Positions 3,298-62,957 of a stretch of 64,000 bases of DNA are shown one piece after another. Made by a program: the position numbers and the translations under genes. Location: the NCBI GenBank assembly GCA_027315165.1, contig DAHUYN010000004.1, forward strand, positions 15,517-79,516, written 5' to 3'. The notes under the pieces were generated by a model. It made no database searches, was not told the DNA's origin, and saw only the letters and a list, made by a program, of their open reading frames with translations. Every line of letters begins with the position of its first letter. The stretch's first letter is position 1. This DNA is from Thermoplasmata archaeon (GTDB lineage Archaea; Thermoplasmatota; Thermoplasmata; Lutacidiplasmatales; UBA184).

Positions 3298-5886
3298 GTG
3301 CGCCCGTGCGGAGGGCTTATCGGCCGACAACGAGTTGGCTCGGTCGTGTCGCGCCGAGGGCGCGGGAGGGCACTCCCGCCCGGCTCGCTGACGCTCGCCC
3401 TCCTGCTCCTGCTCGCAGGACTTCTCGCTCCGCAGGTGCTGTCGGGAGCGGCGCTCCCCTCGCACGCGCCGGGTCTCTCGGCGGCCGCCGCGGTTCCTTC
3501 GAGCCGTCTCGCGACGGCCTCGTCGGCCGGCGCGTGGAGCACGGCGAGCCATCGTCCCTCCCCAGGGCTCGCGCCCTACCGTCTCGCGACGGCTCCGAGG
3601 GCGGGCGCCTCCTGCCCGTTCTCGAGCTCTCCCGGCTGGCTCGCCTACGATCCGAACGATCAGGAGTTCTGGGTGGCCACGCCGCCCGATTGCGTCGATG
3701 TCTTCAACACCGGCTTCAACATGACGCAGCTCACCGCCGGGACGGACCCGTTCGGCGTCGCGGTCGACGCGGCCGCGCACGCGGTGTTCGTGACGAACAC
3801 GGGCTCGAACAACGTGACCGTGTTCAACGACACGACGCAGGCGAGCGTCGCCTCGATCTCGGTCGGGACCGCCCCTCTCGGCGTCGCATACGACCCGGCG
3901 ACCGACGAGCTGTACGTCGCGAACTCGGGGTCGAACTCGGTCTCCGTCATCTCGGTGTCGACGTTGACCGTGGTGGCGAACGTCTCCGTCGGGACCGGCC
4001 CCGCCGGGGTCGACGTCGATACCGCTTCCGGACAGGTATTCGTCGCGGACAACGGCTCGAATGCCGTGAGCGTGATCCGCACGAGCAACCACACCGTCGT
4101 CGCCACCCTTCCCGCGGGCACCGGTCCGCTCGGGGTCGCGGTCGCCACCGGGCTCGGGCTGGCGTTCGTGACCAACTACGGCTCCAACAACGTCACGGTG
4201 GTCAACGCGAGCCAGGATTTCGTCACCGCCACCATCCCCGTCGTCGGACCCGGTCTCGATCTGCAGGGTATCGCCTTCGACCCGCAGACGGGGTCGATGT
4301 GGATCGGCGCCGGGTTCTGGTACGCGGTCGTGCTCAACGTGAGCGCGCTGTCGGTGGGGGGCTACTACGCGACGGACCCGTCCGGTGTCGCCTACGATTC
4401 GACGACCGGAGAGGTCTGCCTGACGAACACCGGCAACTTCACGTTCGAGTGCCTTCGCTCGCCGTTCGACGCGTGGACGGCGGCCTTCGGAGAGTCGGGT
4501 CTTCCCCCCGGCACCGCGTGGACGGTGAGCCTCGGCAACGGAGCGCAGTCGTCGACGACGGCCTCGATCGACGTCGGAGTCGTTCCCTGGGTGTACGGGG
4601 CGGGCCAGGTCTCCTCCTCCTACACGATCCTCACGGCCGCGCCGTTCCTCCCGACGCCCGCCTCCGGGTCGATCGGGTTCTCGAATTTCGGCCCGTCGAC
4701 GAAGTGGTACAACGTGACGTTCGCCCCTTCCGCGGGGCTGTTTGCGGTGACCTTCCTCGAGAGCGGGCTCCCGCCCACGGCGAGCTGGTCGGTGACCCTC
4801 AACAACACGACGGTGCGCTCGAACGCCTCCTCGATCACGATCTACGAACCGAACGGGACAGCGCTGCCTTTCCAGGTGAGCCCCCCCGTCGGCTACACGG
4901 CGTCGCCGGCCACGGGACGGCTCACGATCGCCGGCGCGGCGGTGAACGTCTCCGTGACGTTCTCTCCGTCGGTCCCGTCGACCTCTCGCGTCAGCTTCTT
5001 CGAGACGGGCCTCCCCGTCAACTCGACCTGGTACCTCCTCGTCGCCGGGGTCTGGTACGGAGTCCCGACGGCCACGCTGTCGCTCTCGCTCCCGAACGGG
5101 ACCTACGCGTTCGCATTGGGACCCCTTCCAGGCTACGTCGCGAGTCCCTCCTCGGGGACCGTGGCGGTCTCCGGGGTTCCTGTGACGGTCACCCTCCGCT
5201 TCACCGCGTCGACGACCCCGTCGTACCTCGTGACGCTCTCGGAGTCCGGCCTACCCAGCGGGACGCCCTGGGGCGTCACGATCGGCGGCACGGTCGTGGC
5301 GGGCAGTTCGACCGCGTTCACGACCCAGCTCCCGAACGGCACCTACGCCTACGGGGTCCAGGTCGTGGTCGGCTACATACCGTCCGTCGCGCAGGGCACT
5401 CTCACGGTCGCGGGCGCGCCGGCGACGCTCGACGTCGTGTTCGCCCCGGCACCGCCTTCGCTCGCCCTTTCGGTGTCCCTCCATGAGCTGGTCGTGACGG
5501 CGAGCTGTCTCGCCAACGGGAACGTCTCGAACGTCGTCGCGCTGTCGGCCCAGGCGTCCGGCGGCCTCCCGCCGTACTCGTACTTCTGGAGCGTGCCCTC
5601 GGGCAACGCCTCCGGTCCTCTCGCCTACGCGACGATCGTCGTGACGGCCCCCGTCGCGCTTCGTTGGGTTTCCGTGACCGTGACCGACGCGTCGGGGAAC
5701 CAGACCTCCGCTTCCGTCCTGCCTCCGAGCGTTCTCCCGCCGTGTCCCCCGCCTCCGCCCTCCCCGAACTTCCCGAGCGCGACCCCGGCCGCGCTCACGA
5801 CCGTCTACGCCCTCGTGGCCCTCTCGGTCGTCGTGGCCGCGGTCGCGATCGCCGCGGTGCTCGTCGTCTACCGCAGAAAGCCGTAG
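3298..5886 (+). CDS. Secreted cell-surface protein: N-terminal signal peptide, about five YVTN-family 40-residue beta-propeller repeats, about five ~90-aa E[ST]GLPxGTxW repeat domains, a Pro-rich linker and a C-terminal TM anchor
   Basis: Signal-like LTLALLLLLAGLLAP. YVTN motifs FVTNTGSNNVTVF / YVANSGSNSVSVI / FVADNGSNAVSVI / FVTNYGSNNVTVV. Repeats FGESGLPPGTAWTVSL, FLESGLPPTASWSVTL, FFETGLPVNSTWYLL, LSESGLPSGTPWGVTI. C-terminus PPCPPPPPSP...VVAAVAIAAVLVVYRRKP. Many N-x-S/T sequons. The true start may be an internal GTG (the N-region is 30 aa long if it starts at 3298). Confidence 0.75.
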   Translation: MRPCGGLIGRQRVGSVVSRRGRGRALPPGSLTLALLLLLAGLLAPQVLSGAALPSHAPGLSAAAAVPSSRLATASSAGAWSTASHRPSPGLAPYRLATAPRAGASCPFSSSPGWLAYDPNDQEFWVATPPDCVDVFNTGFNMTQLTAGTDPFGVAVDAAAHAVFVTNTGSNNVTVFNDTTQASVASISVGTAPLGVAYDPATDELYVANSGSNSVSVISVSTLTVVANVSVGTGPAGVDVDTASGQVFVADNGSNAVSVIRTSNHTVVATLPAGTGPLGVAVATGLGLAFVTNYGSNNVTVVNASQDFVTATIPVVGPGLDLQGIAFDPQTGSMWIGAGFWYAVVLNVSALSVGGYYATDPSGVAYDSTTGEVCLTNTGNFTFECLRSPFDAWTAAFGESGLPPGTAWTVSLGNGAQSSTTASIDVGVVPWVYGAGQVSSSYTILTAAPFLPTPASGSIGFSNFGPSTKWYNVTFAPSAGLFAVTFLESGLPPTASWSVTLNNTTVRSNASSITIYEPNGTALPFQVSPPVGYTASPATGRLTIAGAAVNVSVTFSPSVPSTSRVSFFETGLPVNSTWYLLVAGVWYGVPTATLSLSLPNGTYAFALGPLPGYVASPSSGTVAVSGVPVTVTLRFTASTTPSYLVTLSESGLPSGTPWGVTIGGTVVAGSSTAFTTQLPNGTYAYGVQVVVGYIPSVAQGTLTVAGAPATLDVVFAPAPPSLALSVSLHELVVTASCLANGNVSNVVALSAQASGGLPPYSYFWSVPSGNASGPLAYATIVVTAPVALRWVSVTVTDASGNQTSASVLPPSVLPPCPPPPPSPNFPSATPAALTTVYALVALSVVVAAVAIAAVLVVYRRKP

Positions 5887-5958: not shown

Positions 5959-8916
5959 TCACTCCGCGGACCGGACCGCCTCGGCGGGCGGGAGACGCGC
6001 GGCGCGAACCGAGGGGACGGCGATCGCCGCGAGGACGAGCACGTAGGCCACGACCGCGATCTCGGCGATCGTGGTCCACGGACCGACGAACGTCGTGATC
6101 CCCTCGGCGGCGGCGGAGGCGCTCACGGTCAGGTTGTAGACGATGAGGACCCCGAGCACGACGCCGATCGCGACGCCGAGCAGCGTGACGACGCTGTACT
6201 CGAGCAGGTAGGCTCGAACGACCATCGCCTGCGTGAACCCGGCGGCCCGGAGCATCCCGATCTGCCGACGGCGCTCGACGACGGCGCGCAGCGCGAGGAT
6301 CCCCATCGCGGCGATGCCGACCGCGAGACCGAGGCCCACGAAGATCTCGAGGAGGCCGATGAAGCCCTCGGTCGTGTTGAACGAGGTGGCCAAGAGCGCC
6401 TTGATGTTGAAGAGGACGAGGCCGAAGGCGAAGTACGCCTTGAGGAGATTCTGCGAGGCCAGCGTCGTGCTGACGCCAGGGGCGGCCGTGATCAGGTACG
6501 CCCCCACCGTCGTGAAGCCGAGACCCGCGGCCGTCGCGGGGTTCAGCCAGACGCCGGTCAGCGCCGCCTCCTTGAGGATGCCGATGACGGTGACGTTGAC
6601 GGCACGGCCGCCCGAGACGGGTGCGACGGAGATCGTCGTGCCGACCACGAGGTGCGGGTGGGGTCCGGTCGACCCGCCCACGATCGAGGCGGTCGGGGGC
6701 GCGTACGTGTTGTCGACGATCGCGACGGTGGCGTTCGTCGAGAGCTCCTCGAAGACCGCCGCGGCGCTGAGGTCGCCGAGCGTCGAGGCGAAGGTGAACC
6801 GGTTCGTCGTGTAGAAGTCGGCCGGGCCGGTCGTGTTCACCGGGGCCGCGAGGAGCCGGTCCGAGTACGGGTTCGCATCGTAGCCGGGCACGGTGACCTC
6901 GCCCGCCCCGACGACCAGCTCCGCGGCGTTGACGAACTCGGGGGCGAGGGTCGCATTGCTCTCGATGGACCCCCAGAGGTCCGGGATCGGGGTCTGGGAG
7001 GCTCCGAAGTACGTGTAGCCACCGGCCTCGTTGGCGACGACGTTGTCGAGGTTCCCCTGGATCGTCGAGCCGAACGCGGCGGTCGCGACCATCGTGAAGA
7101 CCACGAGGGCGAAGATGGTGAGGCTCACCGCGGACCGGGTCGGCTGGCGGGTGGGATAGTCGAGTCCGACCCGGATGACCGGGCTCGATTGTCCCCGCCG
7201 GCCGAGGACGCGCCGGAGCAGCGTGGCGAGGAGCGGCGCGTTGAAGAGGAAGACCATCAGCGTCCCGCCGACCATGAGGATCCCCTCGACGAAGACGATG
7301 AAGATCCCGCCCGTGTGCGCGCTGCCGAGGAGGAGGGCGTGGAGCGGGACCCACCCGGCCCAGACGGTGAGACCGATGCCGACCGCTGTGAAGACGGGTC
7401 GGTTCCGAAGGAAGCGGGCGGCGACGAGCCCCGCCCCGAGGACCACGAGCGCCCCCGAGAGGATCGGATAGGAGATGTCCGACGCCCCGGAGTAGGTCGC
7501 CCGGAACGCGAGGAGCCCGAGGACCACGAGGGCCCCCCCGAGGTAGGCGAGCACGGTGTAGGTGCGCACGGCGGGGCGCGGCTCGGGTACATCGCGGATC
7601 GCCCGGACGATGTTGAGGCGGCTCACACGCGTGCAGGCGAAGACGACGGTCGCGACGGTGAGCAGAAAGCCGATCACGTAGGCCAGGAGCAGGCTTTGCC
7701 CGGTCACCGTGAACGACTGCAGGATCGCCGCCTCGGGGATCCCTTCGCCCTTGAGGACGCTCCCGGCGAGGTAGACCAGGAGGTAGCCGACCCCGACCCC
7801 GAGACCCGTGCCGGCCAGCGCACTGCCGGCCGCGTAGGCGACCCCTTCGAAGTAGTACGTGTAGACGAGCTCCCGCCGTCGCATCCCGATGGCCCGGAGC
7901 ATCCCCATCTCGCCCTTTCGCTCCTCGGCGAGCATGACGAAGATGCCGACGATGAGGAGGGCCCCGGCGACGATCGAGAAGAGGCCGAGGACGAGGAAGA
8001 CGGTCATCGTGCTCTGGCTGCTCTGGGCGGACTGTTCGAGGCCCGTCTCGAGCGGCGTCGCGACGCTGAGGCCGTAGGTCGCGAGGACGCTCGCGAGCGT
8101 CACGTTCAGCGACGCGCTGACGCGAGTCGAGATCGCCGCGCCGTGCGCGTTCGAGCCGGAGTTCGTCACGGCGAGGTAGTTGATCCGCCCCGAGGCGTTC
8201 TCGAGAAGCTGGGCGGTCGCGAGCGAGACGAACACGTTGCCCGGCGTGAGGCCGCCCGTGATGAAGCCCCCACGGACGTTCTCCTGTACGATCGCCTCGA
8301 CGTGAAGGGGGATCCCGACCTGGCCGAACACGAGGAGCGGGTCGCCGACGGTTGCGTTGACGGTCTGGGCGGCCTGGTCGTCCAGGAAGACGCCCGATCC
8401 GCTCGGACCTTCGAGCGGGGTCCCGTTGTCGGCGAGGAAGGGACCGAGGGCCGAGCTCTGGTTCGCGTTCACCCCGATCAGGTTGAGGGCGGTCGCGGGG
8501 ATCCCGGTGGCCCGGTCGTAGATGGCGCCGCTGTCGACGATCTCCGGCGTGACCCCGGCGATGTCCGGGTCGCCCGCGACGAGCGCCGCGGTCTGCGTGT
8601 ACGCCGCGTAGGGGAAGTAGCTCAGCCCCCCGGTCGGGCTCGTTCCCGTGACCGACTCGTCGACGTAGCCGGCGCCGATGTAGGTGTAGTGGAAGGAGAG
8701 CTGCTGGACGGTGTCGCCGACGATGAGGCTACCGGCGACGATCGTCGTGCCGACGAGGAGCCCCGCGATGAGGAGGACCGTGCGGGCCCGGCCGCGGCGG
8801 ACGTTCCGCATCGCGATGCGGAAGGAGAGTCGGTGGCGGAGCCCGAGGAGCGCGGTGGCGAGCCCGACGACGGCGAGGAGGAGGAGAAGGAGACCGACGG
8901 TCGAGAGCGTCGCCAC
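5959..8916 (-). CDS. MacB/FtsX-family ABC transporter permease with two FtsX modules and large extracytoplasmic domains
   Basis: 985 aa. N-terminal TM (LLLLLAVVGLATALL), a large extracellular domain, TM bundle, a second extracellular domain and a second TM bundle (FtsX-like ...LRAIGMRRRELVYTYYFEG... and ...LRAAGFTQAMVVRAYLLEY...). It sits immediately downstream of its ATPase. Confidence 0.8.
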   Translation of the reverse strand: MATLSTVGLLLLLLAVVGLATALLGLRHRLSFRIAMRNVRRGRARTVLLIAGLLVGTTIVAGSLIVGDTVQQLSFHYTYIGAGYVDESVTGTSPTGGLSYFPYAAYTQTAALVAGDPDIAGVTPEIVDSGAIYDRATGIPATALNLIGVNANQSSALGPFLADNGTPLEGPSGSGVFLDDQAAQTVNATVGDPLLVFGQVGIPLHVEAIVQENVRGGFITGGLTPGNVFVSLATAQLLENASGRINYLAVTNSGSNAHGAAISTRVSASLNVTLASVLATYGLSVATPLETGLEQSAQSSQSTMTVFLVLGLFSIVAGALLIVGIFVMLAEERKGEMGMLRAIGMRRRELVYTYYFEGVAYAAGSALAGTGLGVGVGYLLVYLAGSVLKGEGIPEAAILQSFTVTGQSLLLAYVIGFLLTVATVVFACTRVSRLNIVRAIRDVPEPRPAVRTYTVLAYLGGALVVLGLLAFRATYSGASDISYPILSGALVVLGAGLVAARFLRNRPVFTAVGIGLTVWAGWVPLHALLLGSAHTGGIFIVFVEGILMVGGTLMVFLFNAPLLATLLRRVLGRRGQSSPVIRVGLDYPTRQPTRSAVSLTIFALVVFTMVATAAFGSTIQGNLDNVVANEAGGYTYFGASQTPIPDLWGSIESNATLAPEFVNAAELVVGAGEVTVPGYDANPYSDRLLAAPVNTTGPADFYTTNRFTFASTLGDLSAAAVFEELSTNATVAIVDNTYAPPTASIVGGSTGPHPHLVVGTTISVAPVSGGRAVNVTVIGILKEAALTGVWLNPATAAGLGFTTVGAYLITAAPGVSTTLASQNLLKAYFAFGLVLFNIKALLATSFNTTEGFIGLLEIFVGLGLAVGIAAMGILALRAVVERRRQIGMLRAAGFTQAMVVRAYLLEYSVVTLLGVAIGVVLGVLIVYNLTVSASAAAEGITTFVGPWTTIAEIAVVAYVLVLAAIAVPSVRAARLPPAEAVRSAE

Positions 8917-28749: not shown

Positions 28750-29105
28750 CCCTCCTCCCCGACGAGCCCGAGAGGCTTTGACCCGGGAGCGTCTCCCGAT
28801 GGTCGGGGGGGCATGAGCACGAAGTTGACGGCGGACGCGTACGGCCTCCTCGACGGCCGATGAGCCCCGAACGGCGCTCGCGCGCCCGAGCGGGGGGACA
28901 ACGACGGGCTCGCGGACGGCCCCGACCTCGGGTCCGGTCGAGCCGCGCCGGCGCGAGTACGAGCACCCGCACTCCGAAGCGAGGGGCCCGGGTCCCGCTG
29001 CGCGACGAGCTCGAGTCGCTCACCCGGCGTCTTCAGTGGGAGCGGCCTCCCGCCCCGCCCGCCACGACGCGGGCCCCGCGCCCGGTCGGGTCGCTTCGGA
29101 TCCTG

Positions 29106-30248
29106 ATGGTCGGCTGGGAGTTCCCGCCGCACCACACCGGCGGGCTCGGCGTGCACTGCTACGAGCTCTGCCGCGAGCTGACCCGGCTCGGCCACAAGGT
29201 CACCTTCCTCACGCCGTTCCACGGCCCCTTCACGCCCGTCGAGGGGGTAACGTTCCGCTGGCCCGGCAGCGACCCGGCCGTCGACGCGCGGCTTCCGGGG
29301 ACCTACGACTTCGGTCCCGGGCCGGGGCCGTCCGCGCTCGCGGCGATCGACCTCTACAACGACTGGATCGGTGCGCTCCCCGAGGTCGCCGAGCACGACC
29401 TCCTCCATGTTCACGACTGGTTCGGGACCGTCGGAGCCGTCCGAGCGGCGCACCGGACCCGCCTGCCCCTCGTGATGACCGTCCACTCGACGGAGTACGA
29501 CCGCTCGCTGGGCCATCCCTGGGCCCACATTCTCGCGCGCGAGCAGACGGGACTCGACCACGCCGACCGAGTGATCGCGGTGAGTCGCCACCTCGGCCAG
29601 CAGCTGAGAGAGCGCTACGGGGTCCCCGAGGGGAAGCTGAGGGTCGTCTACAACGCCGTGCGCCCGAGCCCGAGGCTGGCGCGGCTCGAGCACTCGAGGT
29701 CGATCGTGCTGTACGTCGGCCGCCTCGCCGCGATGAAGGGCGTCGACACCTTCCTGCGCGCGGCCCAGCGCGTCTCCGAGCACGCCCCGGGGACGCTGTT
29801 CATCGTGGCCGGCGAGGGGCCGGAGTATCCGCGACTCCTCACGCTCGCGGCCCACCTCGGGATCTCCGACCGGGTCCTGTTCCTCGGGCACGTCTCCGAG
29901 GAGGAGCGGGACCTCCTGCTCGCCTCCGCCTCGGTGTTCGTCCTCCCGTCCGTCGTCGAGCCGTTCGGCATCGCCGCGCTCGAGGCGATGGCCGCCGGGG
30001 TCCCGGCCGTCGTGTCGAAGACGAGCGGTGTCGCCGAGATCGCCGACAGCGTCTTCGCGGTCGACTTCTGGGACACCGAGGAGTTCGCGAGCCGGATCAC
30101 CGAGCTGCTGCGATACCCCGAGCTCCGGAGCGCCATGGGGGCGCGCGCCCAATGGACGGCGCTCAAGGAGGGCTGGGCCGAGCGGGCGCTCCAGACGGTC
30201 CAGGTCTACGGGGAGCTGACGGGCGGGAAAGGCGCCCGGACGCGCTGA
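29106..30248 (+). CDS. Glycosyltransferase family 4 (GT-B fold)
   Basis: N-terminal ILMVGWEFPPHHTGGLGVHCYEL. EX7E motif SVVEPFGIAALEAMAAGVP. 380 aa from the ATG. The upstream part of the track ORF is Arg-rich junk. Confidence 0.8.
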   Translation: MVGWEFPPHHTGGLGVHCYELCRELTRLGHKVTFLTPFHGPFTPVEGVTFRWPGSDPAVDARLPGTYDFGPGPGPSALAAIDLYNDWIGALPEVAEHDLLHVHDWFGTVGAVRAAHRTRLPLVMTVHSTEYDRSLGHPWAHILAREQTGLDHADRVIAVSRHLGQQLRERYGVPEGKLRVVYNAVRPSPRLARLEHSRSIVLYVGRLAAMKGVDTFLRAAQRVSEHAPGTLFIVAGEGPEYPRLLTLAAHLGISDRVLFLGHVSEEERDLLLASASVFVLPSVVEPFGIAALEAMAAGVPAVVSKTSGVAEIADSVFAVDFWDTEEFASRITELLRYPELRSAMGARAQWTALKEGWAERALQTVQVYGELTGGKGARTR

Positions 30249-30360: not shown

Positions 30361-33300
30361 CTACGGGGGCGGCGTCGGACCGGTGGGCCCACCGCTCGGC
30401 GGCGCCGAGGCGGCGGCGGCGCCCGCGGGAGGCTGCGCCGGGACACCGGAGCCGGGGCGCTTGCGACCGAGGAAGAGGAGCCACCCGATGACGGCGACGA
30501 CGAGCGCCAGGAGCAGCCCGGCGGCCAGCCCGTAGACTTCGGTGCTCGAGGTCGAGCTCGTCCCGGTCTTCGTCGTCCCCGACGGGGTCGAGGGGGTCGC
30601 GTACGCCGCGAGGTAGACCGTGACGCCGTTCCCGGCGACCACGACGGTCCCGCTCGCCGAGCTGACGTTGTAGCCCGAGGGCACCGTCACCGTGTAGGGG
30701 TAGCGGCCCGCCGAGACGTGGAACGTCACGGTCGTCGAGGTGGCGGACTGGCTCGAGCCGTTGAGGTTCACCGACCACGAGCTCCCGGACGGGAGTCCGC
30801 TCAAGACGAACTGGACCGAGAAGCTCACCGACGTCGACACGGTGAACGCGATGGGGACGTCCACCGCCGCGCCACCGACCGTGACCGTGCCGGAGGCAGG
30901 GGCGATCGTGAAGCCCGAGATCGCGCCGACCGTGAAGGCGTAGGTGCCGTTCGTCTCGTTGAAGGTGAGGTTGTCGCTCGTGGACGACTGGGTCACGCCC
31001 GCGAGCGTCACGGACCAGCTCGCACCCGCCGGCAGGGACGTCTCGGTGAAGGTCACCGCGTAGACGACCGGCGAGAAGGAGACCGCGACGACCTGGCTGA
31101 GGCCGTTCTCGATCCCCGTCCCCGACGCCGGGCTCGGCGCGTAGCGCGTGTCGGAAGAGGCGACCGAGTACGAGTAGGGCGTGTCGGCCCCGTTGGTCTG
31201 CGAGACGACGATCGTCCCGCCGCCGACCCCGCTCTGGGCGACCCCGTTGAGCGTGACCGACCACGGCGTGCCCGAGGGCAGCCCGTTGGACGTGAACGTC
31301 ACGGTCGCCGAGGTCCACGGGGTCATCAGCGGATACGCATCCGTCGCGCCCGAGACCGTGTAGGACGTGTCGCCGATCCCGTCGCTCCCCGGGAGCGTCT
31401 GCTGGGGTCCCGAGTAGTGGTCGAGCCCGCTGTAGCCGGTCCAGTAGTTCCCGCCGATCGGGTAGGGGGCGTTCCAGGTGCCGGCGACGGTGTTCCCGGA
31501 CTGGGTGAACGCGGTCGAGTTGACGTTGTTGTGGTAGAACTGTCCCACCGAGGACACCGTGATCGTCACCGACGAGACGTCGCGGAGGTCGTTCCCCGAG
31601 ACCGTCGCGAGGTTGTCCCCGTAGAGATAGACGCTGGAGCCGCCGCCGAACCGGTTGTTCGTGAGCTCGGAGGGGTAGCTGCTGTACTCGAGGTCGAGGG
31701 CGTAGCCGACCGCCCCCTGAAGGAGGTTCTGCGTGATGTCGACGCCGAAGGAGTTGGAGTAGTCGTAGACGGCGTCGTAGCCCGCGTTGCGGAGGTCGTT
31801 GCCGCTGATGAGGTCCAGACCGGCGTCGTGCTCGAGGTCGACGGCGGTGTTCGTGACGTTGACGGCCCGGTTGTCCGAGACGGTCACGCCGAGGCCCGAG
31901 TACGAGTAGATTCCCTCGTACCCCGCGTAGGAGAGGTCGTTGCCCGAGACGACGGTAGGCGCGTAGTCGCAGTACTCGAGGTAGACGGCGTCGGTACCGG
32001 CATGCGTGATATTGTTGCCGAGGATCGAGACGGCCCCCTCGGACTCGTAGACGTAGACCCCGTAGAGGAGGGCGTGGGTGATGTTGTTGTCCGTGACGTT
32101 CAGCGCGGCGGTCGAGTAGGCGAAGTTGTCGTAGTAGACGCCGGCGTACCCGGCCCCGGCGAGGTCGTTCCCGGCGATCGTGAGCGCGGCGCCGCCCGAC
32201 TGGTACGCGTCGTAGATCGAGGTCGAGGACGTGTTCGCGAGAACGCTGTCGGTGATCGTGACCGGTCCGTAGCTCAGGTAGAGGTAGACCGCGTCCGACG
32301 AGGCGTTGCTGATGTGGTCGGAAACGACGCTCAGGGAGCCGTAGGAGCTGTCCGAGTAGATCCCATAGCCGGCGTTGTCCATCACATTCCCCTGGACGAG
32401 CGTCGGGCCGTAGGCGGAGTAGACCTCGACGGCCGAGCCGTAGGTGGGGGCGTAGGACATGCTGTTGTTGACGATCCAGGTCGGGCCGTAGCTCGCATCG
32501 ACGTACACGGCCTCGTTCGTGAAGTTCGTGACGACGTTGTTCGAGACCGTTACCGCGGTCGTCTCGTAGAGGTAGACGCCCACGTTCTGAGCGCCCGTGA
32601 GGTTGTTCCCATCGAGGAGGACCCCGCTGGAGAGGGCGACCTCGATGCCGTCGCCCAGCGCGCCGGAGACCGGGATGTCGTTGCCGGTCACGAGGAGGTT
32701 GTGGTCGTTGGAGTCGTAGATGCCGTAGGAGTCGTGCCCGAGGAAGTTGTCGTGCTCGGAGACGTTGGTGCTCGCGCTCGCCCAGACGCCTTCGGACGAG
32801 ACGGAGGTGGCGGCGGTCTCCGTGATGAGGACGTTCGTCGAGCCGTAGACGCCGACCCCGGTGTAGGTCGAGGAGGCGTTGTTCCCCTCGAAGACCACAT
32901 TGAGGCACGTGCTCGCCTGGAAGCCGTAGTAGGTCGAGGCCCCGTTGTTCCCGATCACCGAGAGGTCGCTGACGAGGTAGGCCGCGAGGGCGTAGTCGAA
33001 GAGACCCGCGCCGCCCTCGAGGTAGTTGTTCTCGACGAGGAGCCCGCTCGAGCTGAACAGGTCGATGGCGTGGTTGGCCGTCGCGTTCGCGACATTGCCC
33101 GAGATGGTGACGCCGCTCGCGTCGATGACGTAGATCCCCTCGTAGGCTCCGGTCGCGTTGTTGCCGGTCACCGAGCCACCGGTGGTGCCCGCCTCCGCGA
33201 TGGCGATGTTGCCGGCGCGCTCGACGTGGTTGCCGGAGACGACCGTTCCGGTCGAGTTCAGGACCTCGATGTCGATGTTCGAACCGGCGACCGCGTTCCC

Positions 33301-33720
33301 GGAGACCGTCGCGTACGTCGAGTTCTCGACGAGGATCCCGAGGGTGGCGTTCGTGCTCGCGAAGTCCTCGACGGTGACCGCCGTTGCGTTCGCGACCGTG
33401 ACGGCCGCGCCGTCGCCGCCCAGCAGGCCCACCGTGTAGTTGACCGCAAAGCCGCTGCCGTTGACGACGACCCCGCTCGCCAGGACGACCAGGGCGCCGC
33501 TGAAGGGGGCCGTCAGGTGATAGACACCCGCCGAGACCGAGATCGGGGCCAACGGGTTGCTCACCGAGCCGTTCGGATCGATCGTGACGACCCCGAGGCT
33601 CGCGGCGGGGGAGACGAGGGTGCCCGGCGATCCGGCCCGGGCGGACCCGACGACGGCGAATCCGGCGACGAGCAGCACTGCGACGATCGCGAGCGAGGTC
33701 CACATCGAAGAGATCTTCAT
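30361..33720 (-). CDS. Giant secreted cell-surface protein: signal peptide, right-handed parallel beta-helix (pectin-lyase-fold/NosD-like) repeats, four ~90-aa GLPxGTxWSVTL repeat domains, a Thr/Ser-rich stalk and a C-terminal TM anchor
   Basis: MKISSMWTSLAIVAVLLVAGFAVVGSARA signal. Dozens of PbH1-like repeats (GNNxxG/IxxxxSxNN). Repeats TFTSNGLPSGTPWSVTLNGV, FTETSLPAGASWSVTLAGV, FVLSGLPSGSSWSVNLNGS. C-terminus GLAAGLLLALVVAVIGWLLFLGRKRP followed by a Pro/Ala tail. Extremely sequon-rich. Confidence 0.8.
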   Translation of the reverse strand: MKISSMWTSLAIVAVLLVAGFAVVGSARAGSPGTLVSPAASLGVVTIDPNGSVSNPLAPISVSAGVYHLTAPFSGALVVLASGVVVNGSGFAVNYTVGLLGGDGAAVTVANATAVTVEDFASTNATLGILVENSTYATVSGNAVAGSNIDIEVLNSTGTVVSGNHVERAGNIAIAEAGTTGGSVTGNNATGAYEGIYVIDASGVTISGNVANATANHAIDLFSSSGLLVENNYLEGGAGLFDYALAAYLVSDLSVIGNNGASTYYGFQASTCLNVVFEGNNASSTYTGVGVYGSTNVLITETAATSVSSEGVWASASTNVSEHDNFLGHDSYGIYDSNDHNLLVTGNDIPVSGALGDGIEVALSSGVLLDGNNLTGAQNVGVYLYETTAVTVSNNVVTNFTNEAVYVDASYGPTWIVNNSMSYAPTYGSAVEVYSAYGPTLVQGNVMDNAGYGIYSDSSYGSLSVVSDHISNASSDAVYLYLSYGPVTITDSVLANTSSTSIYDAYQSGGAALTIAGNDLAGAGYAGVYYDNFAYSTAALNVTDNNITHALLYGVYVYESEGAVSILGNNITHAGTDAVYLEYCDYAPTVVSGNDLSYAGYEGIYSYSGLGVTVSDNRAVNVTNTAVDLEHDAGLDLISGNDLRNAGYDAVYDYSNSFGVDITQNLLQGAVGYALDLEYSSYPSELTNNRFGGGSSVYLYGDNLATVSGNDLRDVSSVTITVSSVGQFYHNNVNSTAFTQSGNTVAGTWNAPYPIGGNYWTGYSGLDHYSGPQQTLPGSDGIGDTSYTVSGATDAYPLMTPWTSATVTFTSNGLPSGTPWSVTLNGVAQSGVGGGTIVVSQTNGADTPYSYSVASSDTRYAPSPASGTGIENGLSQVVAVSFSPVVYAVTFTETSLPAGASWSVTLAGVTQSSTSDNLTFNETNGTYAFTVGAISGFTIAPASGTVTVGGAAVDVPIAFTVSTSVSFSVQFVLSGLPSGSSWSVNLNGSSQSATSTTVTFHVSAGRYPYTVTVPSGYNVSSASGTVVVAGNGVTVYLAAYATPSTPSGTTKTGTSSTSSTEVYGLAAGLLLALVVAVIGWLLFLGRKRPGSGVPAQPPAGAAAASAPPSGGPTGPTPPP

Positions 33721-34173: not shown

Positions 34174-35352
34174 ATGCAGATCGTCCTCTACCTCCACCTG
34201 CACCAGCCGTGGCGCCTCGCCCGGTTCCGCTACCTCGACCTCGGCAGCGGTCGGTCCTACTTCGACGAGCCGAGGAACCTCGAGCTGTTCCGCGGCATCG
34301 CCGAGAGGTCGTACCGACCCGCGCTGGGCCGGCTGCTCTCGGCCCTCGAGGCCCACCCGGAGTTCCGGTGTAGCCTTTCGATCACCGGAACGTTCGTCGA
34401 GCAGGCCGACCGGGCGGCCCCCGACGTGCTCGAGCTGGTCCGCGCGCTCGTACGGACCGGCCGGGTCGCGCTCGTCGCCGAGACGTACTACCACTCCCTC
34501 GCCTTCCTGCTCCCTCCGCCCGAGCTCGCCGAGGAGGTGGCGCTGCACCGCCAGATGCTCTGGGACCGGTTCGGGGCCCGTCCGAAGGTGCTCCGCATGA
34601 CCGAGCTCGCCTACTCGGACGAACTGGCGCGCTTCGCGGAGTCCCAGCGATTCCACGGCATGCTCGCGGAGGGCTGGGAGGGGATCCTCCACGGGCATCC
34701 CCCGACGCATGTCTACTGTGCCGCGAGCGCTCCGACGGTGCAGCTCCTGCTGCGACACTACCCGCTCAGCGACGACGTCGGGTTCCGCTTCTCCTCGAGG
34801 GAATGGAGCGAGTACCCGCTCACGAGCGAGAAGTACGCGGGCTGGATCGCGGCGACTCCGGGAGAGGTCGTCAACCTCTTCATGGACTTCGAGACGTTCG
34901 GGGAGCATCACAAGGCCGACACCGGTATCCTCGAGTTCCTGAGCGCGCTGCCCGAGGCCGTCGCGGTGCACCCCCGCCTCGGCTGGGCCACGGTCGAGGA
35001 GGCGATCCACCTCCCCCCACGCGAGTCCGTCTCCGCGCCCGTGACCGTGAGCTGGGCCGACCAGAACCGGGACCTCGGTGCCTGGCTGGGCAACGACCTC
35101 CAGCGCTCGGCGTTCGAGGCCGCCAAGAAGGTGGGTGTGCTCGTCGAGAAGGCGGGGGATCCCGAGCTCCTCACGAGCTGGCGTCGGCTTCTCACCTCGG
35201 ACCACTTCTACTACATGTACGTGAGCGGGCACGGCGCCGACGCCGGCGTCCACCAGTACTTCAGCTCCTACGGGAGTCCGTACGACGCGTACGCCAACTA
35301 CATGAACGCGCTCACTGACCTGCGGCAGAGGGCCGTGGCCCGGCTCCGGTAG
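34174..35352 (+). CDS. Glycoside hydrolase family 57 (alpha-amylase / alpha-glucan-active enzyme)
   Basis: N-terminal MQIVLYLHLHQPWR (the GH57 HxHQP region). 392 aa. Confidence 0.75.
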   Translation: MQIVLYLHLHQPWRLARFRYLDLGSGRSYFDEPRNLELFRGIAERSYRPALGRLLSALEAHPEFRCSLSITGTFVEQADRAAPDVLELVRALVRTGRVALVAETYYHSLAFLLPPPELAEEVALHRQMLWDRFGARPKVLRMTELAYSDELARFAESQRFHGMLAEGWEGILHGHPPTHVYCAASAPTVQLLLRHYPLSDDVGFRFSSREWSEYPLTSEKYAGWIAATPGEVVNLFMDFETFGEHHKADTGILEFLSALPEAVAVHPRLGWATVEEAIHLPPRESVSAPVTVSWADQNRDLGAWLGNDLQRSAFEAAKKVGVLVEKAGDPELLTSWRRLLTSDHFYYMYVSGHGADAGVHQYFSSYGSPYDAYANYMNALTDLRQRAVARLR

Positions 35353-35366
35353 GACCTCGCGCCCCC

Positions 35367-37232
35367 ATGATCTCGCATCTCGCTGGGAACGGCCGGGTCC
35401 TTCTCACCGTCGACGAGGACGGTGTCTGGACGGACCTGTTCTACCCGTATCCGGGCCAGTTCCAGAACCTTCGCGAGGCTCGGCTGGGCCTGTACGATGT
35501 GGGGGGCCGACGGTTCGCCTGGCTTCAAGGGGAGACCGGCTGGCTCGCGCGGAGCGCGGTCCTCGACCGCGGTGAGAGCCCCGAGTTCCGCTGGAGCGGA
35601 GACGGGCTCGTCCTCACGGTCGAGGATCGCGTCCATCCGAACCACGACCTCGTGATCCGAACGCTCCGCCTCGCCAGCGACCGACCCCGGGAGCTCCGCC
35701 TGTTCGCCTACCACTCGCTCAAGATCGCGGAGTCGATGTACCAGGAGACCGCGTACGTCGACCCGGACCGACACGCGCTCGTGCACTACAAGCGGGGTCT
35801 CTACTTCGAGTTCTTCAGCGACCCGACGTTCACGGGAGCGGCCTGCGGCGAGCACACGCTCAAGGGGCTGCAGGGCTCCTACGTCGACGCCGAGGACGGC
35901 CGCCTCGAGGGACGCGCGATCGCGCACGGCGCCGCCGACAGCGTCCTCGAGTGGGACGTCCACCCGACCCCCGGACACCCGGCGCTCGTGCGCCTCATGC
36001 TCGCCCTCGGGCGCGGGCCCGAGGCTGCGCGGCGCGTGCACCAGTACGTGGCGACGGGGGGCGCGGAGCGGTTCGAACGAGAGGCGGCGGCGTTCTGGCG
36101 GGGCTGGGCCACGCGAGCCTGGCCCGAGCTGCCTCGGGACCTCTCGGACCGGGCCAAGACGCTCTACCGAAGCTCTACGAGAGTGATGCGGCTCGCCACG
36201 GGTACGAACGGGGCGATCATCGCCTCGCCGGACACGACCTCGCTCGTCGTCGGCGGCGACACCTACAACTACTGCTGGTGGCGCGACGGCGCCTACGTGA
36301 GCAAGGCGATGGACGAGGCCGGCCTCTATCAGCAGGCCCAGCGGTTCCTCTCCTTCGCGCAGCACTGCCAGAGCCCCGACGGCTCTTGGGTCCACCGACA
36401 CTTCCCGGACGGCGCCATCGGCAGCACCTGGCATCCTCCCCCGTTCCTGCAGATCGACCAGACGGCCTCGGTCATCGCCGCCACCTGGCACCATTTCAAG
36501 CGGGCCGGTGACGCCGACGTCCTCCTCGACCTCTGGCCGATGGTGAAGGGGGCGGCGAACTTCCTCACGGAGTTCCGCGATGCCGAGACCGGCCTGCCGG
36601 CCCCGTCGTTCGACCTCTGGGAAGAGCGCCGGGCCATCCATCTCTACTCGAGCGCGGCGGTCGTGCACGCCCTCGAACGTGCCGCCCGCGTCGCCGAGCA
36701 GCTCGGCAAGGACCCCGAACGCTGGCGACAGGCCTCTCGCGACTATCACGACCGAGCGCTCGAGCGGTTCTGGGACGCGGCCGAAGGACGGTTCGTCCGG
36801 TCCCTCTCGCCTCGGGACGACCGGAAGGACGCATCGACGCTCCTCGCGCTGAAGCTCGGCCTGCTCCCGCCGGAAGACCCGAGGTTCCGGACGACGGTCG
36901 ACACCCTCGAGCAGCGGCTTTGGAACCCCACGCAAGGCGGTCTCGCCCGGTACGAGGGGGACAGCTACTACGGCACGGAGAACCCGTGGATCGTCTGCAC
37001 GCTCTGGCTCGCCGAGGCCCGGCTCGCCCTGGGTGACCGGGAGCGCTGCCGGCAGCTCCTCGAGTGGGCGGCGGCGCATGCCACGGCGACGTTCCTTCTC
37101 CCCGAGCAGGTCGATGCCGCCACGGGCGGCCCCAAGAGCGCGACGCCGCTCACCTGGTCGCACTCGACGTTCGTCGATGTCGCCCACAAGTACTCTCGCG
37201 CCCAGGTCGGCGCGCCGTCGGAGGAGGACTAG
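35367..37232 (+). CDS. Glycoside hydrolase family 15 (glucoamylase/trehalase-like)
   Basis: N-terminal HLAGNGRVLLTVDEDGVWTDLFYP matches the GH15 LIGNGR...W start. The (alpha/alpha)6 region carries ...YNYCWWRDGAYV... and ...ENPWIVCTLWLAEA.... 621 aa. Confidence 0.8.
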   Translation: MISHLAGNGRVLLTVDEDGVWTDLFYPYPGQFQNLREARLGLYDVGGRRFAWLQGETGWLARSAVLDRGESPEFRWSGDGLVLTVEDRVHPNHDLVIRTLRLASDRPRELRLFAYHSLKIAESMYQETAYVDPDRHALVHYKRGLYFEFFSDPTFTGAACGEHTLKGLQGSYVDAEDGRLEGRAIAHGAADSVLEWDVHPTPGHPALVRLMLALGRGPEAARRVHQYVATGGAERFEREAAAFWRGWATRAWPELPRDLSDRAKTLYRSSTRVMRLATGTNGAIIASPDTTSLVVGGDTYNYCWWRDGAYVSKAMDEAGLYQQAQRFLSFAQHCQSPDGSWVHRHFPDGAIGSTWHPPPFLQIDQTASVIAATWHHFKRAGDADVLLDLWPMVKGAANFLTEFRDAETGLPAPSFDLWEERRAIHLYSSAAVVHALERAARVAEQLGKDPERWRQASRDYHDRALERFWDAAEGRFVRSLSPRDDRKDASTLLALKLGLLPPEDPRFRTTVDTLEQRLWNPTQGGLARYEGDSYYGTENPWIVCTLWLAEARLALGDRERCRQLLEWAAAHATATFLLPEQVDAATGGPKSATPLTWSHSTFVDVAHKYSRAQVGAPSEED

Positions 37233-54466: not shown

Positions 54467-56950
54467 ATGCCTCGAGAGGCGGTAGCGGCGGAACCGGCGC
54501 GCGACGCCGTCGACGCGCCCGTCGCTCGCCCGTCGGTCCGAACCCGGCTCCGTCGGATCTCCGCCTACTGGTTCCCCAAGCGCCCCGTCCCCGCGCGCGC
54601 CGACGGGCTCCTCGTGCCCCCAGGACGCGAGCGCTGGGGCTACCTCGTCGCGGTCCTGCTCGCGCTCGCGGCCGCGGCGTTGTACGAGCACTTCTCGCTC
54701 GTCGCCCCGGTCCCGCCCGGCGGTGACGAGGGGTCGTGGCTCGTCCTCTCCTACCCGTATGTGGGCCTGCCGTTCCCGACGCAGGCCGTGCCCTGGACCT
54801 ACCCACCCGCCTCGATGCCGTTCCTCGGCCTCTCGGTGATCGCGGCGGGCGGGCCTCTTGGCGGGGCCCGGCTCTTCGCGGGGCTTCTCATCGTCGGCCT
54901 CGGCGTCTCCCTCTACGAGATGGGCCGGTCCCTGTTCCAGCTGCGGACGGTCGCCCTCGTCGTCGAGGCGACGCTGTTCGTCCAGCCCGACTTCCAGCAG
55001 CTCTACTACTTCGGCTCGTTCCCCAACATGTTCGGCCTGATCTTCTTCTTCCTCGCCATCGCCTACGCCGCGCGCTTCGTGCGCTCCCGTCGCGACCGGT
55101 ATCTCGCGCTGTTCTGGGTCTCGATGACGATCGCCGTGCTCGCCCACGAGCTCGTCGCGGTGTTCCTCCTCGGACTCGTCCTCACGACGGCGGTCCTCCT
55201 CCTGCTCTACCAGCGGCTCCCGCGCGAGCTGTTCGTGCGCCCCGCGGGGTATCTCGGCCTCGCCGGCTTCGGGGCCGCCACGCTCGCCTACTACGAGGGG
55301 ACCCGCCTCGCCAAGACGGCGACACCGAACTACACGACGACCGCCTCGCTCGCCCAGACGATGAGCCGGCAGCTGTTCCCGACGGTCCTCAAGCCGTTCT
55401 ACCTCCAGAACTTCTCGTCGACCGTGAACGGCTCGGGGTTCGCGGTGACGCCGATCTGGTCGCTCGAGCTCGTCCTCGTCGTGGTCGGGCTCCTGCTCGG
55501 CGTCTTCCTGTTCGTCCGCTGGGCCCGCCCCCGGCTGGTCGAGGTGCGCCACATCCTCCTCGCGGCCTGGCTGATCTCGGTCTTCGGCGTCGCCATCGCC
55601 TGCTGGGTCCTCGGGCTCGGGGCGGACTACCGGCGGTTCGCCTACTTTCTCTACCCGCTCACGATCGTCTCGGCCGGCCTCGGGCTCGACCTGTTCCTCT
55701 CCTGGCTCCTCACGCCCCCCCTTCCCGTCGTCGCCGTCAACGACTCCGCCCCCCTCTTCCGGGGCCTCCGGCCGGGCCCGTGGAGCCCGCGAGACCCGTC
55801 GCCGCGTCCGCGCGCCGTGGCCTTCGTCCTCATCGTCCTCACGCTGCTCCTCCTGACCTCGACCCTCGCCTACACCGTGCCGCAGGCCTCGAGCTACGCG
55901 AAGTTCTTCACGGCGACCGGGCATGACGGACAGTTCGTCTCCGCGATGCAGGCGATCTCGGCGTCGACCGTGTCGGGGGCGATCTACTCGTCGACGGAGT
56001 CCGTCGACCGATGGCCCGCGACCCTCACGGCACGCAATGTTTTCGAGGCGCGGGCCCCGACCGGCTTCACCTACACGCCGTCCCAGCTCCTGGGTGACGA
56101 GGAGGCGAACCTCGCTCTCTCCTACCGGTACACCGTGACGAACGGGCACGTGGCCGCGTCGATCCCCGGGGTCACCCCGGCGTACTTCAACGCCTCCCCC
56201 GTGATGTCGATCTACCTCTACGGGGTCCTCTACCAGGTCCTCTCGCTCACGCCGCAGAACATCTTCGTCGGCCTCGGGACGAACGCGACGACCTCGATCT
56301 TCACGAAGGGCGTCACGCCGGCGCCGCAGATCACGCTCCCGACGGACCCGACGAACGCGACCCTCACGCTCACCTACCCGGAGCCCGGCTACGAGGTCGT
56401 CGAGCAGGTCGCGACGCCGCCCGGCACCGACCAGCTCTCGATCACGCTCTCCGCGATCTCGAACGGCTCGGTCGCCTTCGGCGCCCTCCGTACGAAGCTC
56501 ACGTCGGCGACCGGTTCGTTCTCGAACGCGACCGCCCTCGGCCCCACGGGCTTCTCCTGGTTCACGAACACGACGGGCGGCAACGTGACCTCGTTCGGGA
56601 ATCTCACCTCCGGCGCTCTCACGGCCGTCGTGCCGGCGAACGCGACCACCGGCCGCGGGACGTCGGTGTCGATGCAGGTCAACGCGACGATCCCCGTCCC
56701 CGTGCTCTCGCTCTCGTTCACGATCGCCGCCCCCGGCACGTCGAACCCGACCTCGCAGATGAGCGGGTTCTTCAGCACCCCCGCGCTCTTTGAGACGTGG
56801 GGGGTCCGGTTCGCCCTCCTCTCGCTCGCCAACTCGAACACCGGCAGCGCGCCCAAGGCGTTCTACATGAACGAGTACGGCGGGACCGTCTTCTGGTCGG
56901 GGACCCTGTGGGTCGTCCTGCTCCTCCCCGTCGTTCTCGGTCCGGGCTGA
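54467..56950 (+). CDS. GT-C-fold-like integral membrane glycosyltransferase candidate (about 12 TM) with a ~400-aa sequon-rich extracytoplasmic C-terminal domain (paralog 1)
   Basis: First-loop acidic residue PPGGDEGSWLVLSYPYVGL, then MPFLGLSVIAAGGPLGGARLF, QQLYYFGSFPNMFGLIFFF, DYRRFAYFLYPLTIV. No WWDYG motif, so not a canonical AglB. Confidence 0.65.
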   Translation: MPREAVAAEPARDAVDAPVARPSVRTRLRRISAYWFPKRPVPARADGLLVPPGRERWGYLVAVLLALAAAALYEHFSLVAPVPPGGDEGSWLVLSYPYVGLPFPTQAVPWTYPPASMPFLGLSVIAAGGPLGGARLFAGLLIVGLGVSLYEMGRSLFQLRTVALVVEATLFVQPDFQQLYYFGSFPNMFGLIFFFLAIAYAARFVRSRRDRYLALFWVSMTIAVLAHELVAVFLLGLVLTTAVLLLLYQRLPRELFVRPAGYLGLAGFGAATLAYYEGTRLAKTATPNYTTTASLAQTMSRQLFPTVLKPFYLQNFSSTVNGSGFAVTPIWSLELVLVVVGLLLGVFLFVRWARPRLVEVRHILLAAWLISVFGVAIACWVLGLGADYRRFAYFLYPLTIVSAGLGLDLFLSWLLTPPLPVVAVNDSAPLFRGLRPGPWSPRDPSPRPRAVAFVLIVLTLLLLTSTLAYTVPQASSYAKFFTATGHDGQFVSAMQAISASTVSGAIYSSTESVDRWPATLTARNVFEARAPTGFTYTPSQLLGDEEANLALSYRYTVTNGHVAASIPGVTPAYFNASPVMSIYLYGVLYQVLSLTPQNIFVGLGTNATTSIFTKGVTPAPQITLPTDPTNATLTLTYPEPGYEVVEQVATPPGTDQLSITLSAISNGSVAFGALRTKLTSATGSFSNATALGPTGFSWFTNTTGGNVTSFGNLTSGALTAVVPANATTGRGTSVSMQVNATIPVPVLSLSFTIAAPGTSNPTSQMSGFFSTPALFETWGVRFALLSLANSNTGSAPKAFYMNEYGGTVFWSGTLWVVLLLPVVLGPG

Positions 56951-62864: not shown

Positions 62865-62957
62865 CGGTTTCGACGGGGTCCGTTGCCGTCCTCCGTACCC
62901 CGAGCTCCGCGCCGGCACGCCCGGGACGCCCGAACGCGACCTACATGCCAAAGCCTC

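Follow-up and report, generated by a model that had tools for sequence, protein, structure and literature searches.

The window analyzed here is a 64,000-nucleotide stretch of contig DAHUYN010000004.1 from a Thermoplasmata archaeon, and it contains two genes, A (3298..5886, + strand) and B (30361..33720, − strand), whose predicted surface proteins share a tandem repeat, the stalk repeat, beneath unrelated N-terminal heads. Protein A consists of a putative signal peptide, a YVTN propeller, four stalk repeats, a probable PKD-like domain, a Pro-rich linker, a transmembrane (TM) helix and a basic tail. Protein B consists of a putative signal peptide, a β-helix head, three stalk repeats, a Ser/Thr-rich linker, a TM helix and a Pro/Gly/Ala-rich tail. 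At 862 and 1119 amino acids (aa), the two are large rather than giant, as a preliminary description of this DNA had called them. Because the window is rich in G+C (70.3%), long spurious open reading frames (ORFs) overlie every gene in it; codon-position G+C nevertheless picks out the real genes, with third-position values (GC3) of 0.90 for A and 0.96 for B. A Hidden Markov Model (HMM) search with the repeat found the module in no other ORF of the window.

The stalk repeat forms a tandem array of four copies in A (aa 393-722) and three in B (aa 806-1044), where four to five had initially been proposed for each protein, and the units measure 77-89 aa, typically about 80 rather than 90. Alignment and HMM matches delimit A1 (aa 393-481; 4474..4740, +), which has an insertion, A2 (aa 482-563; 4741..4986, +), A3 (aa 564-643; 4987..5226, +) and A4 (aa 644-722; 5227..5463, +) in the first protein. 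In the second, they delimit B1 (aa 806-887; 31060..31305, −), B2 (aa 888-967; 30820..31059, −) and B3 (aa 968-1044; 30589..30819, −). The arrays are free of linkers, with 0-2 residues between the HMM envelopes of successive copies. Units in both proteins follow the signature V-T-F-x-E-x-G-L-P-x-G-T-x-W-S-V ... P-N-G-T-Y-x-[YF] ... G-Y ... G ... V-x-G ... [IV]-x-F. Pairwise identity between copies ranges from 19 to 45%.

An HMM built from the copies of A alone retrieved all three copies of B at 2e-10 to 4e-21, and the search in the opposite direction succeeded as well. The same HMM scored 156 bits on the real B stalk, whereas the best of 2000 shuffles of that stalk reached −1.9 bits. Composition could in principle generate such similarity, given that S, T, G and V together make up 50% of the units and that the genome has 70% G+C. 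However, the shuffles lack the signal, positions F4, G8, L9, W15 and G38 of the family profile are near-invariant, and homologs number in the thousands, some of them in proteins of quite different composition. The cross-HMM matches, family size and shuffle control refute a compositional artifact, to which we assign a negligible probability. The homology between the repeats of A and B is real, neither circular nor compositional, and the common module first noticed in the sequence is borne out.

The closest A/B pairs follow array position (A2-B2, 45% identity; A4-B3, 38%; A1-B1, 32%), and A1 and B1 are the most divergent copies of their arrays. Because the closest pairs match by position, the comparison suggests that the stalk array was moved or inherited as a cassette and was not amplified separately in each gene.

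Upstream of its stalk, A has an N-terminal hydrophobic segment (aa 25-53; 3370..3456, +; peak 2.14 in a 19-residue Kyte-Doolittle window), taken as the signal peptide, and a YVTN/NHL β-propeller head (aa ~110-392; 3625..4473, +). The head was recognized by Pfam NHL (1.3e-14) and YNCE (6e-8) and by NCBIfam TIGR02276 (5e-29), the last scoring 100 bits in four stretches against a cut-off of 27.85. Its C-terminal TM helix spans aa 833-858 (5794..5871, +; hydropathy peak 3.13) and is followed by the basic tail RRKP (5872..5883, +; read from the sequence), which is predicted to be cytoplasmic. Orthologs that are 40-54% identical share this layout of propeller, four repeats, PKD-like domain, PPCPPP and TM helix. 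When GTDB species genomes were searched with protein A, only an irrelevant Bacteroidetes PKD match was returned; therefore, A has no close relative among those genomes.

A public NCBI protein of 737 aa (P0271) is 100% identical to A. Its start was placed at the GTG of 'WVATPPD' (aa 126 of the ORF); this call is 125 codons shorter and loses the signal peptide (window 3298-3675). An equivalent hydrophobic N-terminus is present in the orthologs P0272, P0286 and P0298, and the alignment with P0272 extends upstream of the P0271 start as well. Because of this agreement among orthologs, the longer ORF of A is probably the correct one.

The supposed fifth copy in A is a different domain. This segment (aa 723-820; 5464..5757, +), which lies between A4 and the TM helix and carries a GG-x-PPY-x-Y-x-W motif, was compared as a profile of 16 orthologs with the repeat profile, and hhalign gave a probability of only 3%. 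The 16-ortholog profile instead matched the Ig-like domain of a phage decoration protein (5lxk_A) at 4e-6 and the PKD domains of collagenases and proteases at 0.0014-0.26. Pfam returned SprB (E 0.009) and PKD_6 (E 0.065), both below cut-off, and Foldseek gave only generic matches to immunoglobulin (Ig)-like domains. AlphaFold modeled the segment as all-β, with a predicted local distance difference test (pLDDT) score of 88. These results rule it out as a stalk copy and point to a PKD-like Ig domain. Two cysteines in it are near-invariant across the 16 orthologs ('..SCL..' and 'LPPCPPP'); the pair may form a disulfide that fastens the domain and the Pro-rich linker together; alternatively, the second cysteine may be a modification site.

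Protein B begins with a predicted signal peptide (aa 1-29, ending ...GSARA; 33634..33720, −; hydropathy peak 2.44). Its head is a right-handed parallel β-helix (aa 30-805; 31306..33633, −), recognized by Pfam Beta_helix (PF13229; 3.6e-42, 144.1 bits against a cut-off of 25.9) and NosD (PF05048; 8.6e-35, 120.5 bits against 23.6) and by TIGR03804 repeats. With TIGR02276 at 100 bits on one head and Beta_helix at 144 bits on the other, the two N-terminal folds are different, as originally described. Behind the stalk of B follow a 17-aa linker (aa 1045-1061; 30538..30588, −), a C-terminal TM helix (aa 1062-1085; 30466..30537, −; hydropathy peak 2.74) and a putative cytoplasmic tail (aa 1086-1119; 30364..30465, −) composed of RKRP and 30 further residues rich in Pro, Gly and Ala; linker and tail were read from the sequence.

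Each protein therefore has the single C-terminal TM helix with a basic tail that had been reported for it. The Pro/Thr-rich region said to precede this helix was found in part: the linker of A, 12 aa between the PKD-like module and the TM helix, is Pro-rich, that of B is Ser/Thr-rich, and neither contains a helical segment. No NCBIfam sorting signal matched at E ≤ 1 and no PGF motif precedes either TM helix, in agreement with the apparent absence of PGF-CTERM and archaeosortase signals.

We next considered the fold of the stalk repeat. From an alignment of 73 diverse units, to which the window contributed seven and database matches the rest, AlphaFold modeled B2 with a mean pLDDT of 97.1 and eight strands. 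Foldseek ranked carboxypeptidase N/D and SdrD domains at the top of the matches to this model. The structural neighbors include the B. anthracis TIE collagen-adhesin, streptococcal and corynebacterial pilins such as SpaA, the SdrD structure (A2-A3-B1-B2 domains) and the C-terminal domain of carboxypeptidase D. By sequence, the best match of the repeat profile in the PDB was 9vo5_B, a SpaA-like prealbumin fold (E 0.002), through P-N-G-x-Y ... G-Y. On the basis of the model, the fold is a transthyretin/prealbumin-like (CnaB-type) β-sandwich. CARDB and Big, proposed earlier as candidate folds together with PKD, are rejected in its favor by the structure comparison, and membership in a known fold class makes the module less mysterious than it had appeared.

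At the level of sequence families, the repeat remained without a name, as the preliminary description had stated. Pfam and NCBIfam searches with whole proteins, single repeats, the 73 units and the database matches assigned no named family: none of the 73 units reached any Pfam gathering score, and NCBIfam gave no match. Sub-threshold Pfam matches to SpaA, SpaA_2, SpaA_4, PEGA, CarboxypepD_reg and SdrD_B (E 0.005-0.09) appeared in one to three of the 73 units; the window copy B3 showed SpaA_4, SpaA_2 and SpaA. DUF5979 scored just above its cut-off in two relatives, but in a register straddling two repeats. PKD had been named as the identity that would make the module unremarkable. No PKD family (PF00801, PF18911, PF19408) matched the window repeats at E ≤ 10 or the 73 units at E ≤ 1, and this identity is rejected also by the hhalign probability of 3% against the PKD-like module of A and by structural neighbors that are CnaB/transthyretin-like.

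Some relatives carry the NCBI label 'InlB B-repeat-containing'. In P0078, a ~70-aa InlB-B-repeat-like domain (Flg_new_2, 2e-7) lies directly before the stalk repeats; P0101 and P0111 have a precomputed Flg_new_2 label, and ~70-aa gaps between their repeats could fit such a domain. Some of these labels arise because a Flg_new_2 domain sits beside the repeats. The InlB B-repeat was rejected as the identity of the stalk repeat, since the match in P0078 falls on a separate domain.

To measure the extent of the family, 1.84 billion cluster representatives (50% identity clusters) were scanned with HMMER. The scan yielded 8401 representatives at E ≤ 1e-3 and 3848 at E ≤ 1e-30, with 2 to 44 copies per protein. 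The relatives are archaeal, mostly from Thermoplasmata metagenome-assembled genomes (MAGs), and also from "Ca. Thermoplasmatota", "Ca. Lutacidiplasmatales", Thermoprotei, Nitrososphaerota MAGs and acid-mine-drainage metagenomes. They are labeled "hypothetical", "YncE family protein", "YVTN family beta-propeller protein" or "thermopsin precursor", the last label being applied even to mine-drainage fragments that consist only of the stalk repeat. Looking up the clusters added no informative names.

Conservation was measured on 1798 units over 75 profile positions. The most conserved positions are F4 (94%), E6 (89%), G8 (96%), L9 (96%), W15 (98%), N37 (88%), G38 (96%) and T/S39 (91%); P10, G12, T13, Y40, Y/F42, G49, Y50, G57, V61, G63 and F72 are also conserved. 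An N-G-[TS] sequon for N-glycosylation occupies positions 37-39 in 84% of the units, which contain 2.9 sequons each on average. The repeats of A hold nine sequons, an enrichment over the 2.5 ± 1.4 seen in shuffles.

A CnaB-type fold raises the question of an intramolecular isopeptide bond as in Gram-positive pili, the Lys-Asn/Asp link by which many CnaB-type domains are defined, and NCBI indeed gives four fragment matches the name DUF7619, which is among the isopeptide-domain families (PMC12617251). Lysine, however, is conserved at none of the 75 positions, accounts for 1.2% of the residues of the units, and occurs only twice in the whole of A and three times in B. Because no lysine is conserved, such a bond is very improbable. 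DUF7619 itself was rejected as the identity of the repeat, since Pfam did not reproduce it at E ≤ 1 on the labeled fragments; the family moreover spans about 130 aa (PMC12617251), compared with about 80 aa here.

Architectures were counted in the 150 best representatives by total score. A TM helix lies within the last 60 residues of 98 of these 150, and a hydrophobic N-terminus was seen in 100; among the remaining members, many stop at a repeat with a short or missing C-terminal tail, apparently through truncation. The non-repeat parts of the 150 proteins fall into 43 similarity groups. The largest group of heads is the YVTN/NHL propeller (23 of 123, with 22 resembling the head of A). Pfam further identified DUF2341, a pro-kumamolisin activation domain (sedolisin-type), Kelch, phosphoesterase, SBP_bac_5 (family-5 solute-binding protein), a Sortilin/BNR propeller and an alpha/beta-hydrolase (esterase); several head groups had no Pfam match. 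One member, P0193, is headed by thermopsin (PF05317 at 7e-85). In total, the repeat stands behind at least ten unrelated head types.

These counts bear on the idea that A and B are themselves lattice-forming S-layer or cell-wall proteins. Both are large, sequon-rich, predicted to be exported and C-terminally anchored, as many euryarchaeal S-layer glycoproteins are generally known to be. Against this, A and B bear unrelated heads whose folds resemble those of enzymes or binding proteins, and proteases, phosphoesterases and solute-binding proteins sit on the same stalk elsewhere in the family, a pattern typical of tethered exoproteins and not of lattice subunits; the PGF-CTERM signal is also absent. 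We regard a lattice-forming role as improbable. Of the earlier proposal, the notion of modular, anchored surface proteins with a common stalk is well supported by the prevalence of C-terminal TM helices and the diversity of heads, whereas an S-layer or cell-wall role is unsupported.

Ten proteins of the window were scanned with Pfam, which placed an FtsX permease next to gene A and glycogen genes next to gene B; no S-layer gene or SlaA-like gene was recognized among the ten. Immediately downstream of A, on the opposite strand, lies a 985-aa FtsX-type ABC permease with a large extracytoplasmic region (5959-8916, −). ABC ATPase-like sequence occurs further upstream (~1024-2000, −), and no link to gene A was established. 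Gene B lies within a glycogen/starch-type group (28860-30248, 34174-35352 and 35367-37232, all +) comprising a GT4/GT5 glycosyltransferase with a starch-synthase-like domain, a GH57 protein and a GH15 glucoamylase-like protein, and a functional link between this group and B is not evident.

Elsewhere in the window, two adjacent genes (61392-62864, +; 62883-64000, +, cut by the window end) encode similar-looking secreted proteins with many sequons. The product of the first matches the Phosphoesterase family (PF04185), which serves as a stalk-repeat head in other organisms; neither protein has the repeat within the window. A divergent pair (54467-56950, +; 57023-59581, −) encodes proteins of ~830-850 aa that are alike by eye, each with a multi-pass membrane region and a large, sequon-rich, C-terminal extracellular part. 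The first showed a weak Pfam match to PTPS_related (E 2.6e-5, below cut-off) and the second none. Both products may be GT-C-type glycosyltransferases.

Taken together, these observations lead us to consider it probable that the repeat serves as a stiff and likely N-glycosylated spacer that tethers diverse heads above the membrane. Under this interpretation, A and B would be type-I membrane proteins exported by way of an N-terminal signal peptide, with one C-terminal TM helix as the anchor in the cytoplasmic membrane and the basic tail remaining inside. Three to four head-to-tail β-sandwiches would form a stiff, probably glycosylated rod between head and anchor. By the typical size of Ig-like domains, the rod would hold the head, a YVTN β-propeller in A and a pectate-lyase/NosD-like β-helix in B, some 10 nm or more above the membrane. 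The same cassette would serve Thermoplasmata and other archaea as a tether for proteins as varied as proteases, phosphoesterases, solute-binding proteins and propellers. That A and B are exported, oriented in this way, glycosylated and rigid, and that the stalk acts as a spacer, is deduced from what is established about Sec export, the positive-inside rule, N-glycosylation in archaea and tandem Ig-like stalks.

Several points weigh against the spacer interpretation. The E-x-G-L-P-x-G-T-x-W loop is conserved (E 89%, G 96%, L 96%, W 98%) beyond what a passive spacer needs, which could point to a role in binding or in relation to glycans. As for the conserved N-G, a structural β-turn may be enough to account for it. 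The rigidity and length given for the stalk are carried over from other tandem Ig-like arrays. A β-helix head of the type found in B was absent from the 150 best representatives, and the ranking by total score favors many-copy proteins. Finally, the gene neighborhoods of A and B yielded no functional clue.

The conserved loop could also be read as an interaction surface, in which case the repeats would be functional binding modules for carbohydrate, an S-layer canopy or a partner protein, docking an outer S-layer or glycocalyx component in the manner of SlaB and Saci1846. The Sulfolobales proteins Saci1846 and M164_1049 have Ig-like domains and help to anchor SlaA (PMC12207459, PMC6712394). 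Transthyretin-like domains of carboxypeptidases and the B repeats of SdrD are, as is generally known, domains that do bind or regulate. Yet neither the repeat profile nor a Thermoprotei member matched the sequence of SlaB (PDB 8qox_B) even at E ≤ 10, and SlaB ranked only 28th in the fold comparison, behind many generic members of the fold. A copy number ranging from 2 to 44 fits a length-setting module better than a specific docking site, and the ten scanned window proteins include no recognized S-layer gene. A docking role, the chief alternative to the spacer, therefore seems unlikely to us, although less so than a lattice-forming one; the high conservation of the loop speaks in its favor.

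Returning to the spacer interpretation, a broader proposal can be advanced tentatively. The repeat may represent a very large, unmodeled archaeal family (at least 8400 clusters at 50% identity) dedicated to N-glycan-bearing stalks, with the near-universal N-G-[TS] sequon as its hallmark, and an archaeal functional counterpart of CnaB/SdrD-B in which glycosylation replaces isopeptide cross-links as the stabilizer. We think this rather unlikely.

The practical consequence concerns annotation: thousands of archaeal proteins annotated as "hypothetical", "YncE family" or "thermopsin precursor" have in common a domain of ~77 aa that lacks a model, and a single profile would flag them as surface-tethered and separate stalk from head. 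The conserved sequon offers a concrete candidate glycosylation site. More generally, the findings support the view that a common glycosylated β-sandwich stalk and a C-terminal TM helix are the means by which archaea lacking an outer membrane retain exoenzymes, binding proteins and adhesin-like heads at the cell. They reveal neither a new mechanism nor a new kind of system, and we consider the finding real but fairly ordinary.

Among known systems, tandem CnaB, SpaA and SdrD-B domains of Gram-positive adhesins and pili similarly form arrays that project an adhesive head from the surface. The stalk repeat differs from them in lacking the isopeptide triad, in ending at a TM helix instead of an LPXTG/sortase signal and in having a conserved N-G-[TS] sequon instead. 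CarboxypepD_reg and PEGA differ in that only one to two of the 73 units show even a sub-threshold match to them, and the N-terminal E-x-G-L-P-x-G-T-x-W half is specific to the stalk-repeat family. PKD domains resemble the repeat in being Ig-like β-sandwiches of similar size, and a probable PKD-like domain is present in A itself.

SlaB of Sulfolobus acidocaldarius consists of three β-sandwiches, a coiled coil and a TM helix (PMC10903991). A and B likewise combine β-sandwich domains with a C-terminal TM anchor. SlaB differs in being trimeric, in bearing no enzymatic head and in its coiled-coil helix of 132 aa (PMC10903991), where A and B have short linkers rich in Pro or in Ser/Thr. The stalk repeat might nevertheless share ancestry with the β-sandwich domains of Sulfolobales SlaB and its thermopsin-like paralogs.

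A close counterpart exists in the multi-domain thermopsin-like proteins of Sulfolobales, which are cell-associated (PMC3958906, PMC6712394, PMC12207459). The S. solfataricus protein SSO1175 (SsMTP-1), as described in 2014, carries a thermopsin domain behind its signal peptide, followed by two internal repeats of ~79 aa that were left unnamed and by a C-terminal TM helix (PMC3958906); N-glycosylation of this protein has been reported (PMC6712394). In the homologs M164_1049 and Saci1846, three Ig-like domains resembling those of SlaB are predicted, and both proteins act as a secondary membrane stalk holding the SlaA canopy (PMC6712394, PMC12207459). A and B share with these proteins an N-terminal head behind a signal peptide, a tandem array of β-sandwich repeats, which measure about 79 aa in the Sulfolobales proteins, and one C-terminal TM helix. 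They differ in their heads, a propeller and a β-helix, and in their Thermoplasmata-like host. Pfam found no thermopsin (PF05317; the SsMTP family, arCOG03671) in A or B, whereas other members of the repeat family have it. Because the repeats are of equal length, some members are thermopsin-headed and others are labeled 'thermopsin precursor', the repeats of SSO1175 (V297-N375 and V446-N523) and of Saci1846 are, by comparison of descriptions, likely homologous to the stalk repeat.

A further parallel comes from Nanobdella. Its thermopsin-like and pectin-lyase-like proteins, known from prediction alone, combine Ig-like folds with numerous sequons and a C-terminal TM helix (bioRxiv 10.1101/2023.10.27.564410). 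The pectin-lyase-like proteins share the architecture of B, having a β-helix, 1-8 Ig-like folds and many N-glycosylation sites in 908-1320 aa (bioRxiv 10.1101/2023.10.27.564410). Nanobdella belongs to a different lineage (DPANN), and the likeness is one of architecture. What is mildly novel here is that an abundant stalk domain with a conserved sequon has no curated Pfam or NCBIfam model; the combination of a head, Ig-like repeats and a C-terminal TM helix is itself already published for both Sulfolobus and Nanobdella (PMC3958906, PMC6712394, PMC12207459, bioRxiv 10.1101/2023.10.27.564410).

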